46,196 nt of DNA from Candidatus Zambryskiibacteriota bacterium (GCA_963840745.1 CAWJAC010000003.1:1-46196), one strand, 5' to 3'. Positions 17,982-43,039 are shown, counted from the stretch's first letter. Numbers and translations are program-made. Notes: generated from the letters alone by a model not told the origin.

Positions 17982-18494
17982 TTAGACAAGCATATCTGTG
18001 GATAAAGAAATGGCGGCACAAGTGAGGGCGATTGCTACAGCATCATATTCATCGTCATGTCTTTTTTGTTTGCCGGCCAGGGACTTCATTTTTATCAGTT
18101 TCTCCACCATATAAATGACTTGTTTTTTGTCGCTTTTGCCATAGCCGGTAACAGCCAGTTTTATTTGGTTTGGATTAAATTCTCTTAAAACAACATTGCA
18201 TCTGGTTATCTCTGCCAATATTACTCCGCGGGCCTCGGCTACTTGCAAAGCCGTTTTTTTATTTTTACTCCAAAGTAAAGTCTCAACTGCTATTTGATCT
18301 GGTTTATATTTTTTTATTGTTTCTCTAATTTTATTTCCTATAAGAAGCAATCTTTTTGAATGTAACAATTTAACGTCTGTTTCAAAACATTCAGAGTGAA
18401 TCAGTGTTTGATTGCCTTTCTCGTTTTTAATTACAGCTATTCCCATTCTGCCATAACCCGGATCTATACCAAGAATAATATTTTTATTCTGCAT
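17982..18494 (-). CDS. ruvC: Crossover junction endodeoxyribonuclease RuvC
   Basis: Starts ILGIDPGYGRMGIAV, with catalytic D/E residues and the C-terminal DDEYDAVAIAL motif. The start at the internal ATG 18492-18494 (MQNKNIILGID) is preferred over the tracked 18530. Confidence 0.9.
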   Translation of the reverse strand: MQNKNIILGIDPGYGRMGIAVIKNEKGNQTLIHSECFETDVKLLHSKRLLLIGNKIRETIKKYKPDQIAVETLLWSKNKKTALQVAEARGVILAEITRCNVVLREFNPNQIKLAVTGYGKSDKKQVIYMVEKLIKMKSLAGKQKRHDDEYDAVAIALTCAAISLSTDMLV

Positions 18495-19020
18495 TTGTAA
18501 AAACTTCTTGGACCTCGTCATTTTCTTCAAGCTCTTCTGTTAAAATTTCTAATTTTGCGCCATCTTCTTCTGATATCGGTATAGTATTTTTGGGCGTCCA
18601 TTCACTTCCGCTAACCTTTTTTTCAAAAGCCCAAGTGGCCGAGCCCGGCACCGCCAACTCGTACCCATTTTTAGTAAGAATATGTTTTATTTCTTGTGCC
18701 GCCTTATTTCTATTCTCCGTCAAAGCTTCAATGATGAAAGCACATCCGCCCGGCCCATAAGCTTCATAAGTAATTTGCTCCATTTCGCCCCCTTCTCCTC
18801 CAACACCCTTTTTTATAGCTCTTTCAATATTGTCGCTAGGCACGTTAGCTTCTTTGGCTTTTTCAATGGCCGCTCTCAAACTCGGAGCGTTTACGTCTCC
18901 CTTGGCTTTCTTAGACTCAACTGCAACAAAACGCACCAATTTGCCAAAAATCTTAGACTTCTGCGCGTCTGTCACCGCTTTCTTATTTTTTATTTTTGAC
19001 CATTTGTTGTGTCCGGACAT
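18484..19020 (-). CDS. yebC: YebC/PmpR-family DNA-binding regulator (compact form)
   Basis: MSGHNKWSKIKNKKA...YEAYGPGG...ENRNKAA is the classic YebC N-terminus. At 178 aa it is shorter than the usual roughly 240 aa. Confidence 0.85.
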   Translation of the reverse strand: MSGHNKWSKIKNKKAVTDAQKSKIFGKLVRFVAVESKKAKGDVNAPSLRAAIEKAKEANVPSDNIERAIKKGVGGEGGEMEQITYEAYGPGGCAFIIEALTENRNKAAQEIKHILTKNGYELAVPGSATWAFEKKVSGSEWTPKNTIPISEEDGAKLEILTEELEENDEVQEVFTNAE

Positions 19021-19034
19021 AATTTATATTTTAA

Positions 19035-20063
19035 TCACAATAATTTCTCTTGCCTCTCTTTCGGAAAATCAAGACCCAAATGCTTGTAGGCGTATCTGGT
19101 GAGGACGCGGCCGCGGGGAGTGCGTTCAAGGAAACCAATTTGTAACAAATATGGCTCGTTGAATTCTTCAATAGTTGCTTCTTCTTCAGATAGGGAAGCG
19201 GCCAGGGTGTTAAGACCAACCGGTCCGCCTCTGAATTTATGAGCAATGGTCTTTAAAAGAGCCATATCAGAAGCATTGAGTCCGACGCTGTCTACACCTA
19301 AAAGATTAAATGTCTCGTTGACCACTTCTTCATCAATATCTTTTTTATTTATCTGAGCATAATCACGAGTTCTTTTTAAAAGATAATTGGCTGTCCTTGG
19401 AGTGAATCGGCTTCTTTCGGCTATGGCTTTTGCTGCAGTTTTGTCTAAAGACACACCCAAAATATTTGCCGAACGTTTAATAATGCTCATTATTTCGTCC
19501 GGACTGTAAAACTCAAGCCTGAAAATTCCTCCCGAAAATCTCGAACGCAGCGGAGAAGAAAGCATTGCCACCCTGGTCGTTGCCCCTATTAAAGTAAATG
19601 CCGGCAATTCAAGTTGAATGGTTCGCGCCGAAGGCCCTTTACCAATAATAATATCAAGTGATCTCGATTCCATAGCGGGGTAAAGTACTTCTTCAATTGT
19701 TTTATTTAATCTGTGTATTTCATCTATAAAAAGAATATCTCCAGGAGATAAGTTGGTTAGAATTGACGCCAAGTCACCGACTTTTTCAATGGCCGGACCG
19801 GAAGTGGAGCGCATTTGACTACTAGTTTGCTTGGCTATAAGATGTGCCAGTGTTGTTTTACCCAAGCCGGGTGGCCCATAAAATAGCAGGTGTTCGGGTG
19901 GAGATTCTCGTTCTTTGGCAGCGGAGAGAAGAATTTGGAGGTTTTTTTTGATGTTTTCCTGGCCAATATATTCGTCCCACTTGGAAGGCCTAAGAGTTTG
20001 GTCAATAAATTCAAAATCTTTGCTTTCCGGTTCTTTCTCGTTGTTTTTTTTATTCCTTGACAT
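19035..20063 (-). CDS. ruvB: Holliday junction branch migration helicase RuvB
   Basis: Walker A GPPGLGKTTLA, Walker B LFIDEIHRL, with sensor motifs and a winged-helix C-terminus. Confidence 0.95.
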   Translation of the reverse strand: MSRNKKNNEKEPESKDFEFIDQTLRPSKWDEYIGQENIKKNLQILLSAAKERESPPEHLLFYGPPGLGKTTLAHLIAKQTSSQMRSTSGPAIEKVGDLASILTNLSPGDILFIDEIHRLNKTIEEVLYPAMESRSLDIIIGKGPSARTIQLELPAFTLIGATTRVAMLSSPLRSRFSGGIFRLEFYSPDEIMSIIKRSANILGVSLDKTAAKAIAERSRFTPRTANYLLKRTRDYAQINKKDIDEEVVNETFNLLGVDSVGLNASDMALLKTIAHKFRGGPVGLNTLAASLSEEEATIEEFNEPYLLQIGFLERTPRGRVLTRYAYKHLGLDFPKERQEKLL

Positions 20064-20098
20064 ATTTTATGCTCTATGATATACTCTACATGAATTGG

Positions 20099-20256
20099 AG
20101 ACACAAATCTCTAAGTGGCGGCCCTAGCGATAGGGTTTTGACATTAAATCAAGGGAGTGCCGGTACCGTCTTTCGGGAGGGATCACTGGCTCTTTCCTCA
20201 GAATAATGTTTTGCTTTTGGTTTAAACATTGAAAGTGCCACTTAGAGATTTGTATC
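20099..20256 (-). ncRNA. Structured RNA candidate of unknown class; alternatively a MITE-like inverted-repeat element
   Basis: A 20-nt terminal inverted repeat, 20099-20118 against 20237-20256. Of these, 17 are contiguous Watson-Crick pairs, and the single odd position is C.A on the plus strand but G.U on the minus strand. Internal hairpins are CCCTA-GCGA-TAGGG (20122-20135) and AATGTTT-N12-AAACATT (20204-20229), plus a bulged helix spanning 20150-20198. It lies in the 264-bp non-coding gap between pilB and ruvB. Confidence 0.4.
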
Positions 20257-20327
20257 CCTAATTTATTTTAATCTAAAGTTCATTATTCACAAAACCTGCA
20301 GAGGAGCAATCAATTTTGTGCATAACT

Positions 20328-22007
20328 TTACTCTCCTAGATCAATCACTCGACGCAGTTCGTCAAAGGAGGTGACGCCTTGGAGTATTTTAATAACGCCG
20401 TCTTGTTTCATGTCTAAAATACCTTGGCCTTCGGCGGCTTTGTTTATTTCTCTCTCACTCGGATTTTCTTTGACAATATTTTCTATTTTCTCGTCGGTTA
20501 GCACCGCCTCATAAATGCCTGTTCTGCCTTTAAACCCGGTAAAATTACACTCCTTGCAGCCGACTGCCTCATACACGTTTTCAAAATCCAAACCTTTTAA
20601 ATAATTTTTATCCAAAATGCTATCTATAATTTTTTTTATCAAACTATTTTCTTTTTCTTCCAAAACCGCCTTCTTTTTGCACTTTTTACAAAGCTTTCTT
20701 ATAAGCCTTTGGGCCATAGCTATATTGATGGCTGAGGTGATAACTTTTGGATTAACTCCCAGATCGATGAGTCGGGGAAAAGTACCAGCGGCATTATTAG
20801 TGTGTAGAGTGGAAAAAACCAAATGTCCGGTCAGGGCTGAGTTAATGGCAATCTCGGCTGTTTCTTCATCGCGAATCTCACCAACCATTATAACATCTGG
20901 ATCTTGACGCAGAGCGCTTCTTAATCCTTCCAAAAATGTATAGCCCTTTTCCTCGTCTGTCTGGGTTTGCACTATACCTTTGAGGTGATATTCAATAGGA
21001 TTTTCAATGGTAATTATTTTTATTTCCGGTGTATGGATTTTCTTTAAAAAAGCGTAAAGGGTCGTGGTCTTGCCGCTACCGGTTGGACCGGTGTTTAAAA
21101 TCATGCCGTTTGGCTTTTGGAGTTCTTTGAGAATAATGCCAAGAAGTTTTTCATTTATACCGAGTTCTTCCAAAGGCACAGAAATGGCGTTTGGATTTAA
21201 GACCCTTAGAACCACTGATTCTCCATAACCGCCAGGCAGAAGCGAGGTGCGTATTTCAATCTCAACGTCTTCAATTTTTATACTAAATCGGCCATCTTGG
21301 GCCTTGCCTTTGGTATTTAATTTAAGATTAGAAATAAGTTTAATGCGAGAGAGTAAAAGTCCGTAAGTGCCGTAATCAATATTTAAAATATCATTTAAAA
21401 CTCCATCCAATCGATATCGGAGTCTAACCGAAGATTCTTCCGGTTCAATATGAATGTCTGAAGCATTTATAGAGATGGCTCCGGCCAGTATTATTTCTAA
21501 TATTCTTGAAATGCGATAACTTTTCTTTTGGGCCAAAACTGTTTCAATGGATTTTTTTATATCCGGAGCCGTTTTTACGCTTTTAACTAAGTCCTGAATT
21601 TCCTCGTTAGCAATGTTTAGCGCTCCGCCTTTTGTCTCCATTGAATATGATAAATCTTTATAACGACCCCATACTTTTTGCAGACTTTGGTGGGAGGCCA
21701 TAAAAAGCATAGGGGTATAACCCCTGTCTTTTAAACTTTCAATCAAATATATCGTCTTATCCTCATTGGGGGAGACGATCGCTAGGGATATTTTTTTATT
21801 TATTATATTAAAAGGGGCTGCTTCTGCTTCTCTCCCATCCTCTTCTTTAACAATGCGTAAGGCATCAATGTTTATTGGATTAACATCGAGGTCAATATAA
21901 GGTAGCCCATATTTTTTGGACATCACCTGAGCTAAGCTTTCCTCTTCCTGCTCGCGCAACTCCTCAACCTTTTGCCTCTGCTTGTCCTCGTCGAATTTAA
22001 TAACCAT
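20328..22007 (-). CDS. pilB: GspE/PilB-family type IV pilus / type II secretion assembly ATPase
   Basis: Walker A GPTGSGKTTT, Asp box, Walker B VIMVGEIRD, His box TGHLVFSTLHTN, and a tetracysteine CKKCKK...CKEC motif. Confidence 0.9.
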   Translation of the reverse strand: MVIKFDEDKQRQKVEELREQEEESLAQVMSKKYGLPYIDLDVNPINIDALRIVKEEDGREAEAAPFNIINKKISLAIVSPNEDKTIYLIESLKDRGYTPMLFMASHQSLQKVWGRYKDLSYSMETKGGALNIANEEIQDLVKSVKTAPDIKKSIETVLAQKKSYRISRILEIILAGAISINASDIHIEPEESSVRLRYRLDGVLNDILNIDYGTYGLLLSRIKLISNLKLNTKGKAQDGRFSIKIEDVEIEIRTSLLPGGYGESVVLRVLNPNAISVPLEELGINEKLLGIILKELQKPNGMILNTGPTGSGKTTTLYAFLKKIHTPEIKIITIENPIEYHLKGIVQTQTDEEKGYTFLEGLRSALRQDPDVIMVGEIRDEETAEIAINSALTGHLVFSTLHTNNAAGTFPRLIDLGVNPKVITSAINIAMAQRLIRKLCKKCKKKAVLEEKENSLIKKIIDSILDKNYLKGLDFENVYEAVGCKECNFTGFKGRTGIYEAVLTDEKIENIVKENPSEREINKAAEGQGILDMKQDGVIKILQGVTSFDELRRVIDLGE

Positions 22008-31141: not shown

Positions 31142-31708
31142 TTACTTGCCTAAATTTTTTAGGGAATATTTTATTTTTTCATTTGTTCCGACCAGGTCTT
31201 TTGGCAAATTCTTGATCGTCTCTTGGATGTCTCGCTCCCTGTATCCCAAAGACTTAAGAGCGTCAAAGACATCAACATTCTCGCTTGCTCCTAGCTCTCC
31301 TTTTCTGGTTGTGATAAGTTTGCCGTTTAATTCTAAAACTATTTTTTCAGCCGTCTTTCTGCCAATGCCTGAAATTTTGGTAAGTGATGATGTGTCTCCA
31401 CTTCCGACCGCCTCTTCGATTGATTTTACTCCGGCTACGGAGAGAATGGCAAGTGCCGACTTGGGACCGACTCCTGAGACAGTTATCAAAAGCTCAAAAA
31501 CCCGCAGTTCCTCTTCTGTTTCAAATCCATAAAGATCTATTGAATTTTCTCTGACGGCGGTATATGTCCAGAAGTTTGCTTCCGATCCGGTTTTAAGTTT
31601 TGAGAGGTAATAAGGAGTGCTGTGCACCACGAAACCAATGCCGCCAGCCTTTACAATAGTTTTTGTTCCTTTTAGATCAAATATTTTGCCTGTAATATGG
31701 CCAAACAT
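31142..31708 (-). CDS. ruvA: Holliday junction DNA helicase subunit RuvA
   Basis: MFGHITGKI..., HhH motifs (LITVSGVGPKSALAIL, LTKISGIGRKTAEKIV) and a C-terminal domain III. The internal ATG at 31706-31708 is preferred over the tracked 31768. Confidence 0.9.
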   Translation of the reverse strand: MFGHITGKIFDLKGTKTIVKAGGIGFVVHSTPYYLSKLKTGSEANFWTYTAVRENSIDLYGFETEEELRVFELLITVSGVGPKSALAILSVAGVKSIEEAVGSGDTSSLTKISGIGRKTAEKIVLELNGKLITTRKGELGASENVDVFDALKSLGYRERDIQETIKNLPKDLVGTNEKIKYSLKNLGK

Positions 31709-41062: not shown

Positions 41063-43039
41063 ATGCAATATGATGATGAAAAAAAAGAAAAACTGAATAG
41101 GCTTGAGAAGAAACTCTATTCTAGAAGTGCTCCCAATATAATTGACAAAGGCCGATCAGATTTTAATCAGTCACCCAATCAAGGTGGTGTCGAAGGAATT
41201 AACGGAGAAAATGAAGAGGTGAAAGAAAGATGGACAAACAGCAAAACCGGTGGTTTTGATGAATTGGTGGCAAGATTTTCTCGAGCTACCAACAAAAAAT
41301 ACAGTTTTATTAAAAAAATTTTTATCTTTTCCGTAATATTTTTTGTGTTAGCTGTCGGTGTAGCAGCCTACGTATTTTTTGGCGGAATAAATTCAGTTTC
41401 CTCAAAAAATGTGGATATAGAAGTGGTTGGGCCGCTTTCTATTCCCGGCGGTCAAGAAGTTTCTTTGGATATAAATATCATAAACAACAACAGCGTCGAT
41501 CTTAATTCCGCTTCTCTCCTTGTTGAATATCCAACAAGCACCAGATCAGTTGCAGATCCTACTAAAGAGCTTACTCAGGAAAAATTTGTTTTAGACAAAA
41601 TAAAATCTGGAGAAAGTTATGGCCAAAACATCAAAGCAATTTTCTTTGGTGAAAAAGATGACTTGAAACAAATAAAAATTTCTTTGGAATACAGAGTGGA
41701 AAATTCAAGCGCTCTGTTTTACAAAGAAAAAATTTACGAAATATCCATCAGTTCCTCTCCGATCATAATCACCCCCACTTACCCAAAAGAAGTTAATTCA
41801 AATCAGGAAGTCTCTTTCAATATAGAAGTGGCTTCAAATTCCAAAGATAAAGTAAATAATTTTTTGGTTAATGTTGAATATCCGTTTGGTTTTGTCTTTG
41901 AAGATTCAACACCGAAAGCATCTTTCGGTAATAATATTTGGCAAATTCCAGAACTTGATTCCGGAGAAAAGAAAACAATTTCCATAAAAGGAAATATTGT
42001 TGGCCAAGATAATGAAGAAAAAGTCTTTAAAATAAACGCTGGAACAGCAAGTCCGGATGATGAAAGAGTAATAGCCATTCCATTTTCACAGCTAATGGAA
42101 TCGATTTTGGTAAAAAAATCTTTCATCGGATTGGATGTTTCTGTCGGTGGAGGCAGCGGTGATTTTGCTGGTCAAGGCGGCAGCAGCGTCGATACCAATT
42201 TTACAGTCACAAATAATTTACCGTCTAAACTGTTTAATACCTCGGTTGAGGTTGCTTTTACCGGTGGTGCTTTCGACCCGCTCTCTGTTTCACCGGGATA
42301 TAACGGCTTTTTCCAATCTTCCAACAACACTATTTCTTGGGATAAAAGATCTGTGCCGGAATTTTCTGAAATGGATCCTGGTTCTGAGAAAAACTTATCT
42401 TTTCGCCTGTCGCCGCTTTTGTACGCAAATATAGTCAAAGGCGCAAAACCGGAAATAGATATGGTTATAACTGCCAATGGTGAAAGAATCTTAGATTCTG
42501 GTTCAGTAGAGTCGGTTTCCACTACGGAAACAAGAAAGATTATTCTCAGCAGCGATGTATCTTTTTCGTCGACAGTTTCAAGATCTGTGGGCAATATTGA
42601 AAATTCCGGTCCGATACCGCCCAAAGCCAATGTACCTACCACTTATACTGTGATTTGGAGTATCAGCAATTCGTTTAATCAGGTAAGCAATGTGGAGGTC
42701 AGGGCCACTTTGCCTCCCTATATAAAATGGACTAATTTAAAAAATCCGAGCAGTGAATTGTTTAGTTTTGATCCAGTGACCAACGAAGTTGTTTGGAATG
42801 TAGGATCGCTCCTACCCAATACTGGTTTTGGTTCTCCTAAAAAAGAAATATATTTCCAACTGCAATTTCTGCCAAGCCTTAGCCAAATCGGGCAAAGCCC
42901 GACTATATTAGGTGAAGCTTCTCTTTCCGGTATTGATAAGATGACAGGACTTAAAATAGAGACGACGGCGCCGGCAGTCGCCACCAATTTTTCAGGAGAC
43001 CCGAGTTTCAAAATAGAAGATGACAAGGTGGTGCAATAA
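41063..43039 (+). CDS. Large membrane-anchored extracytoplasmic protein with repeated Ig-like/CARDB-like beta-sandwich modules (hypothetical)
   Basis: A 658-aa protein with a charged N-terminus and one TM helix (IFIFSVIFFVLAVGVAAYVFFGG). It then has repeated modules of the form 'G..V.f.i.i.N.s...l....l.veYP.gf'. Confidence 0.65.
   Translation: MQYDDEKKEKLNRLEKKLYSRSAPNIIDKGRSDFNQSPNQGGVEGINGENEEVKERWTNSKTGGFDELVARFSRATNKKYSFIKKIFIFSVIFFVLAVGVAAYVFFGGINSVSSKNVDIEVVGPLSIPGGQEVSLDINIINNNSVDLNSASLLVEYPTSTRSVADPTKELTQEKFVLDKIKSGESYGQNIKAIFFGEKDDLKQIKISLEYRVENSSALFYKEKIYEISISSSPIIITPTYPKEVNSNQEVSFNIEVASNSKDKVNNFLVNVEYPFGFVFEDSTPKASFGNNIWQIPELDSGEKKTISIKGNIVGQDNEEKVFKINAGTASPDDERVIAIPFSQLMESILVKKSFIGLDVSVGGGSGDFAGQGGSSVDTNFTVTNNLPSKLFNTSVEVAFTGGAFDPLSVSPGYNGFFQSSNNTISWDKRSVPEFSEMDPGSEKNLSFRLSPLLYANIVKGAKPEIDMVITANGERILDSGSVESVSTTETRKIILSSDVSFSSTVSRSVGNIENSGPIPPKANVPTTYTVIWSISNSFNQVSNVEVRATLPPYIKWTNLKNPSSELFSFDPVTNEVVWNVGSLLPNTGFGSPKKEIYFQLQFLPSLSQIGQSPTILGEASLSGIDKMTGLKIETTAPAVATNFSGDPSFKIEDDKVVQ

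Follow-up and report, generated by a model that had tools for sequence, protein, structure and literature searches.

A probable structured RNA gene of an undescribed family, head-to-head with ruvB in an order of Parcubacteria

What lies in the gap between pilB and ruvB in the genome of a Candidatus Zambryskiibacteriota bacterium? The window, as we call the whole 46,196-nt stretch of DNA analyzed (GCA_963840745.1 CAWJAC010000003.1:1-46196), carries two minus-strand genes at this place. One is ruvB (19035–20063, 342 aa in the ORF list; Pfam RuvB_N at 3e-71, RuvB_C, and AAA_lid_4), whose ATG is the complement of CAT at 20061–20063. The other is pilB, encoding a type IV pilus/T2SSE ATPase (20328–22007; Pfam T2SSE at 5.6e-118). 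A sequence-only reading of the gap had described a highly structured element bounded by a terminal inverted repeat, and offered an unclassified structured non-coding RNA or a miniature inverted-repeat transposable element (MITE) as explanations.

Both arms of the repeat, GACACAAATCTCTAAGTGGC at 20100–20119 and GCCACTTAGAGATTTGTATC at 20237–20256, were found in the window. The sequence-only reading had their 20-nt pairing right but placed the start of the element one base early, and the pairing extends further, to a closing helix of 26 pairs (20094–20119 with 20237–20262), including two A·C/C·A mismatches and one G·U. The seventeen contiguous perfect pairs that it counted were confirmed, as their core ACAAATCTCTAAGTGGC occurred exactly twice in the window, once on each strand (0.17 expected by chance). 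The segment 20094–20262 folded with −73.4 kcal/mol on the plus strand (z −7.6) and −60.2 kcal/mol on the minus strand (z −8.1), and in neither case was any of 200 shuffles as good. Since both strands fold far better than the shuffled controls, the structure is real and not a product of chance.

No Rfam 15 family matched the locus (19950–20400), even at E up to 10; the sequence-only reading had been unable to match the element to tRNA, 5S, SRP, 6S, tmRNA, or RNase P RNA. With the gathering score as threshold for the whole window, and E-values of up to 10 allowed for the locus, Rfam returned only tRNAs and chance matches of microRNA-like hairpins. A literature search did not find a published description of a four-armed RNA beside ruvB. 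Taken together with the comparative data given below, the locus is very probably a real RNA gene that represents an undescribed family. The proposal of an unclassified structured RNA was thus borne out by a fold preserved with heavy covariation and by the lack of a matching Rfam family.

The consensus fold was a four-way junction of helices P1, P2, P3, and P4 with linkers of 0–3 nt. An alignment of 26 family members contained 62 consensus pairs, 30 of them with compensatory changes. The covariance model R1 was built from this alignment (E-values obtained with our own models are rough); the 169-nt segment 20094–20262 matched R1 with 173.9 bits and model R2 with 128.1 bits, in both cases over the full length. 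A model biases the alignments made with it in favor of its own structure, so we took the main covariation counts from a clean MAFFT alignment of 36 diverse sequences (A8). Here, 44 of 54 pairs, distributed over five helical segments, changed on both sides. Paired cells reached 91.2% compared to 75.4% in column shuffles (0 of 500 shuffles attained the observed value) and fell to 38–50% when the partners were slid by 1–3 columns. In an alignment of 99 sequences, nearly all pairs with top mutual information were pairs of the nested fold or extensions of its helices, and the mutual-information scan revealed no pseudoknots or loop–loop contacts. The most conserved bases of the 99 sequences were located away from the junction, in P1, P3, and P4.

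The closing helix P1 is formed by the 5' arm at 20094–20119, with the inner part AAAUCUCUAAG, and the 3' arm at 20237–20262, with the inner part CUUAGAGAUUU. In A8, 22 of its 26 pairs changed on both sides and 93.5% of the cells were paired. The outer part of P1 covaries, the inner part is nearly invariant across the order, and the helix has no bulges. P2 (20121–20136) is a short variable hairpin, CCCUA-GCGA-UAGGG with a closing G·U, which the sequence-only reading had already proposed; all five of its pairs covaried in A8. In the genome G001 (L012:1483–1730), it carries an insertion of ~30 nt that forms a perfectly paired extension of the stem (CCAGCACCAUUUUU...AAAAAUGGUGCUGG), so P2 tolerates large changes in length; P2 is deleted in the loci L076 and L080.

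The long arm P3 (20140–20210) was supported by covariation in both the 36- and 99-sequence alignments. It begins with a basal stem (20140–20143/20207–20210) and continues outward with an internal loop, a block that reads AGGG/UCCU in the window (20152–20155/20195–20198; invariant AGGA/UCCU in the order consensus), a C/UA bulge, a second block that reads CCGGU/ACUGG (20160–20164/20185–20189; invariant CUGGU/RCUGG in the order consensus), and a variable apical hairpin (20165–20184), absent in G029 and G034. In the order consensus, the second block consists of the pairs C-G, U·G, G·U, and G-C, which the order retains throughout. P3 also includes the bulged helix AAGGGAGUGCC/GGCUCUUUCCU, which had been recognized earlier. 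The proposed pairing AATGTTT/AAACATT did not survive: the two strings are complementary in the window, but the pairing was present in 47.5% of cells versus 45.1% in shuffles among 36 homologues, with no excess of covariation. Their bases belong instead to P3 (GACA/UGUU) and to P4, a hairpin GCUUUUGGU...AUUGAAAGU at 20213–20236 formed by GCUUUUGGU/AUUGAAAGU. All eight pairs of P4 covaried in A8, three of them are G·U in the window genome, and a minus-strand version of the hairpin would keep only about four pairs. In alignment A12, the kept columns 26, 117, and 141 (window 20119, 20213, and 20237) showed that the first base of P4 (G/A) tracks the last pair of P1 (C-G/U-A); this correlation may reflect a junction contact or the effect of two large clades.

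The coding strand was assessed from wobble pairs, which are valid on one strand and become A·C on the other. Among 36 sequences, pairs valid as G·U on the plus strand only outnumbered the opposite case by 250 to 50, an excess present in every helix; among 99 sequences, the ratio was 614:119. Several G·U pairs do not vary at all among the 26 family sequences. The order as a whole retains the tandem U·G/G·U within the second block of P3, and G·U pairs are maintained in P4 as well. By this comparative evidence, the RNA gene is encoded on the plus strand. The earlier inclination towards a minus-strand transcript had been based on two A·C mismatches that are particular to the window genome, and the family-wide bias overturns it. 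A minus-strand ruvB leader or riboswitch was rejected on the same bias, together with a promoter and a U-tail that both lie on the plus strand.

The promoter scan revealed a near-consensus promoter on the plus strand, TTGACA-17-TATACT with an upstream TATG, scoring 11 of 12 matches. The −35 box is at 20057–20062, and the extended −10 element (20075–20085) comprises TATG, corresponding to the TRTG motif, then A, then TATACT at 20080–20085. Transcription is predicted to start near 20092. The −35 box, the TG of TATG, and most of the −10 hexamer are invariant in 17 family members, and of 21 loci belonging to other families of the order, 19 have the pattern TTGACA-N-TRTGnTAnnnT. Between the −10 box and P1 lies a spacer of 8 to ~100 nt, variable in length and not conserved in sequence. 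Directly 3' of P1, the window has a U-rich tail, UUAUUUU (20263–20269), which likely marks the 3' end or the tail of a terminator. A U-run, or a separate hairpin with a U-run, occurs 3' of P1 on the plus strand in most loci of the order. The scan called no terminator-like site in the region; P1 with the U-tail may serve as the RNA's own terminator. An intrinsic terminator alone does not explain the locus, whose four helices comprise 54 conserved pairs and which has a promoter of its own.

Only one copy of the RNA gene was present in the 508,602-base (509-kb) assembly, and blastn detected one copy in each of ~30 genomes of the same family (69–95% identity). When 301 genomes sampled from the order were searched with R1 and filters on, 178 had a single match, which was full length. 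With the filters off, the RNA was recovered beside ruvB in 17 of the 21 ruvB-bearing genomes that seemed to have been missed, always divergent from ruvB. At least two of the four remaining misses are contig ends (G009 and G047, the latter of which later yielded a partial match cut by the contig end), and in G074, ruvB starts 247 nt from the contig start. The 26-bp inverted repeat may interrupt assembly, which can make the RNA and ruvB seem absent at the same time. In an even sample of the phylum, the RNA was detected in all eight genomes of the order versus 3 of ~390 genomes outside it. The three outside matches were a genome of another order with the same layout and PilB- and RuvB-sized ORFs (judged by size), a 2.7-kb contig with the same layout, and a weak match. 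More than 120 species representatives contained the exact P1 core motif. Where a lineage was named, the label was almost always Zambryskibacteria, Taylorbacteria, Parcubacteria, Paceibacterota, or Minisyncoccia; many carried the generic 'Saccharibacteria' label of one pipeline, one was assigned to Planctomycetaceae, and many were named just 'bacterium'. Judged by these searches, nearly every member of one large order of Parcubacteria, comprising Zambryskibacteria, Taylorbacteria, and their relatives, has the RNA, and has it in a single copy.

The genomic position is also fixed. RuvB was recognized upstream by Pfam in all six of the diverse loci taken from different families; PilB was recognized downstream by Pfam in all four of the loci scanned for it, and the other two have a PilB-sized ORF. 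At every locus where neighbors were checked, the RNA gene was located between pilB and ruvB. In the window, its strand is opposite to that of both neighbors, so that it is head-to-head with ruvB and convergent with pilB. The −35 box shares its position with part of codons 1 and 2 of ruvB, which are read from the opposite strand. The same overlap with the ruvB start codon, in which TTGACAT is the complement of ATGTCAA, was found in the loci L040, L055, and L058; in G023, G024, and G025, the −35 box does not overlap and is 30–40 nt from the ruvB start.

Several known identities of the RNA were considered and rejected. The signal recognition particle (SRP) RNA came into question because no SRP RNA is detectable in this lineage: none of 26 genomes had a match for RF00169 or RF01854. 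Nevertheless, the lineage lacks Ffh and FtsY, and the apical loop of our RNA lacks the domain IV motif. A search for SRP54-type GTPases (Ffh, FtsY) in the 26 genomes gave only three marginal partial P-loop matches, while 14 of 14 controls were positive. The absence of SRP in Parcubacteria has already been published (PMC4508563). A minimal RNase P RNA was suggested by the string GAGGAAAG on the minus strand, which is the wrong strand, and RNase P RNA is encoded elsewhere. RF00010 was found at 18967–19271 of contig C6 of the window genome (G000) and in 22 of 26 relatives, which indicates that the search with RNA models works on these genomes. The tmRNA was rejected since the RNA has no tRNA-like end and aragorn finds none. 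As a separate observation, aragorn detected no tmRNA in the window genome despite the presence of SmpB. A protein with an RNA recognition motif was rejected as a specific partner, with RRM_1 occurring in 285 of 401 genomes of the phylum and being absent from one RNA-bearing genome. Small RRM_1 proteins, encoded in these 285 of 401 Patescibacteria genomes, were present in only 2 of 14 well-known control genomes.

The 3' flank may bear on how ruvB is expressed. It contains a DnaA-box match, TTATTCACA, at 20283–20291 on the plus strand, invariant in the Zambryskibacteria family, and a second match, TTATGCACA, at 20317–20325 on the minus strand, which has the opposite orientation to the first and comes within two bases of the stop codon of pilB. 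The two boxes are 34 nt apart, center to center, with an invariant ATTG between them in this family. Located between the 3' end of the RNA and the pilB stop, the pair is kept in nearly all loci of the Zambryskibacteria family. Elsewhere in the order, the flank is not conserved and only some loci keep one DnaA box; a conserved ruvB promoter downstream of the RNA was not found in the order-wide loci outside the Zambryskibacteria family. A DnaA-controlled promoter for ruvB-yebC-ruvC may be located at the box pair. The −35 box on the ruvB start leaves the stretch between the two genes without space for a ruvB promoter. Read on the minus strand, the palindromic −10 region is TAGCAY, and in about one third of the genomes (TGTG variants) it is missing the final T, which is critical. 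The promoter scan detected no minus-strand promoter inside the RNA gene. For these three reasons, transcription of ruvB probably begins beyond the RNA gene or reads through from pilB, in which case the ruvB leader would include a complete complement of the RNA. In the window, ruvB, yebC/TACO1, and ruvC form an operon in this order (17982–20063, minus strand) with overlapping or abutting genes, and ruvA is 11 kb away. RNase III, RuvA (31316–31708, minus strand), SmpB, and DnaA are encoded in the window genome. With E. coli queries, tblastn gave no match for LexA, RecA, or Hfq in the assembly, which is 89% complete.

On balance, we favor the view that the locus is a separate plus-strand gene with its own promoter, which specifies a stable structured RNA of ~169 nt from an undescribed family with the role outlined here. 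The primary transcript would start 8–100 nt upstream of P1 and extend to the U-run that follows P1 or to a terminator close by. The role of P1 would be to define and protect the mature ends, and it may be a site for RNase III. The binding platform for a protein would be formed by the invariant bases in helices, namely CUCUAAG/CUUAGAG in P1, AGGA/UCCU in P3, and the block C-G, U·G, G·U, G-C in P3, and the RNA would work in trans as part of a ribonucleoprotein. At the same time, the strong RNA promoter, placed on or next to the ruvB start codon, would fire against ruvB, and ruvB transcripts would probably cross the RNA gene in antisense. Synthesis of the RNA should consequently lower the expression of ruvB-yebC-ruvC, both because polymerases would collide and because the RNA would be complementary to the ruvB leader over its full length. 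The most likely function is that of a stable RNA that binds protein and is transcribed in opposition to ruvB expression. For its first component, a ribonucleoprotein-type RNA acting in trans through a protein on the invariant helical bases, with P1 in processing and protection, we consider the chances about even. It is unusual for a housekeeping RNA that acts in trans to keep so strictly to a place beside one gene, a position that fits an action in cis at least equally well, and the RRM proteins show no specific co-occurrence with the RNA. As for the second component, the displaced −35 box of G023, G024, and G025 is at odds with a promoter placed on the ruvB start. A secondary effect in cis on ruvB is likely whether the RNA is mainly a trans-acting ribonucleoprotein or a cis-antisense regulator.

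The latter, an RNA that controls ruvB-yebC-ruvC by interference at the promoter, by pairing with the ruvB 5' UTR, and by RNase III cleavage, is the rival that we take most seriously, although we consider it rather improbable. The fold would then serve only stability and kissing contacts, the regulation could replace SOS control, and DnaA would control the opposing ruvB promoter in Zambryskibacteria. The head-to-head arrangement with ruvB at every examined locus of the order and in one genome of another order is what such a regulator would call for, as are the −35 box on the ruvB start with no intergenic room for a ruvB promoter, and the minus-strand palindromic −10 without its final T in about a third of the genomes, which leaves ruvB probably transcribed from beyond the RNA. 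The conserved DnaA-box pair with ATTG lies exactly beyond the RNA gene in the Zambryskibacteria family, RNase III is present, and LexA was not found by tblastn in the 89%-complete assembly. However, an antisense regulator does not need 44 covarying pairs, invariant bases in helices, or a tandem G·U on one strand across more than 100 families. Its leader nearest ruvB, 8–100 nt long, is not conserved, and neither is the flank across the order where a ruvB promoter would be expected.

The remaining readings concern the Ruv proteins, RNA polymerase, and DNA-level repeats. It is unlikely, in our estimation, that the RNA is an order-specific ribonucleoprotein component tied to Holliday-junction processing, which would titrate or load RuvA, RuvB, or RuvC, or gate ruvB-yebC-ruvC in place of LexA/SOS, with the DnaA boxes feeding in the replication status. 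Still more doubtful is that the four-way-junction RNA is itself a partner or decoy of the RuvA, RuvB, and RuvC machinery, in the way that 6S RNA mimics an open promoter. The tight junction with its 0–3-nt linkers and the invariable linkage to ruvB-yebC-ruvC, with ruvA also in the window, would suit a decoy, but RuvA and RuvC recognize B-form DNA junctions and an RNA junction is A-form; moreover, the most conserved bases are in P1, P3, and P4, away from the junction. There is little to recommend a divergent 6S RNA of the lineage that binds the RNA polymerase holoenzyme, although the size of ~170 nt, the strong promoter of its own, the long closing helix, and the single copy would all agree with it, and in 26 relatives the Rfam 6S model yields no other candidate above E = 0.001. 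RF00013 gave no match at 19950–20400 up to E 10 and none at gathering score in the window; among the 26 related genomes, none exceeded the cut-off, and the sole weak match was in G038. The large central bubble of 6S RNA is lacking, with P2 and P4, both covarying, filling the positions of the bubble; the junction is tight and not open, and P1 has no bulges. In addition, a separate rod-shaped, promoter-driven RNA is found after ndk, and its homologue is the weak 6S match of G038. Least credible, to the point of being negligible, is a MITE or some other palindrome that acts at the DNA level, for example as a cruciform or as a site for a protein. The 20–26-nt terminal inverted repeats and the contigs that break at the element in several assemblies could be cited in its favor. 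The element has one copy per genome, at the orthologous site in hundreds of species, and the exact P1 core motif was absent from the viral contigs searched (2.9 million). The flanks at 20084–20093 and 20263–20272 share no direct repeat, which confirms the earlier remark that no target-site duplication is evident, and the strand-asymmetric G·U pairs and covarying internal helices also speak against it. The MITE alternative left by the sequence-only reading was abandoned.

The RNA after ndk lies at ~41360–41493 (plus strand) of contig C4 in the window genome (locus L221:860–994). It has a 13-bp closing helix, its own terminator, and a promoter (predicted), and it folded with −48.1 kcal/mol (z −6.7). 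It is homologous to the weak 6S match of G038 and was not called by Rfam in the window genome. From its shape and homology, this ndk-linked RNA is likely a compact 6S-type RNA and the better 6S candidate of the two.

The RNA beside ruvB shares features with several known systems. Like the Rfam orphans raiA, Bacteroidales-1, Chlorobi-1, and Acido-1, it has a gene to itself, equipped with promoter and terminator, a complex covarying fold, a range limited to one lineage, and no known function. It has no sequence or structure match to them and differs in its uninterrupted 26-bp closing helix and in being locked head-to-head with ruvB throughout the lineage. It resembles 6S RNA (SsrS, RF00013) in size, paired 5' and 3' ends, a strong, constitutive-looking promoter, and single copy, but has a four-way junction in place of the open central bubble and does not match the model. 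CopA, RNAI, and chromosomal antisense RNAs are likewise opposite the 5' region of a gene, strongly folded, and driven by a promoter that faces the target; duplexes of the CopA/RNAI type are processed by RNase III, an enzyme that the window genome encodes. In contrast to these, the order-wide covariation of our RNA is far deeper than in known antisense RNAs, its invariant bases are in helices and not in kissing loops, and the overlap of transcripts is hypothetical here. Y RNA/YrlA also combines a long stem of paired ends with a multi-branched module (tRNA-like and four-way in YrlA); our RNA has no Rfam match of this kind, and no T-loop/D-loop signature was seen in it.

Parcubacteria, which in this order are ultra-small bacteria, have minimal genomes of 0.5–1 Mb. 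These reduced genomes have dispensed even with SRP, yet nearly all of those in this order retain a 170-nt RNA with a strong (predicted) promoter and an intricate fold at one fixed place. Conservation of such depth in such reduced genomes makes it likely that the RNA does something important. It matches none of the 4227 Rfam families. As a new class, it would offer over 100 sequences, a secondary structure backed by covariation, and invariant bases that stand out clearly. The way in which it is interlocked with ruvB provides a testable link between a structured RNA and the control of recombinational repair where no LexA was found. Annotation pipelines miss the RNA, and assemblies often break at it: contigs stop in or beside the RNA gene in G007 (ends of C5 and C14), G009 (end of C7), G010 (start of C4), G047 (end of C4), and G176 (end of C1).
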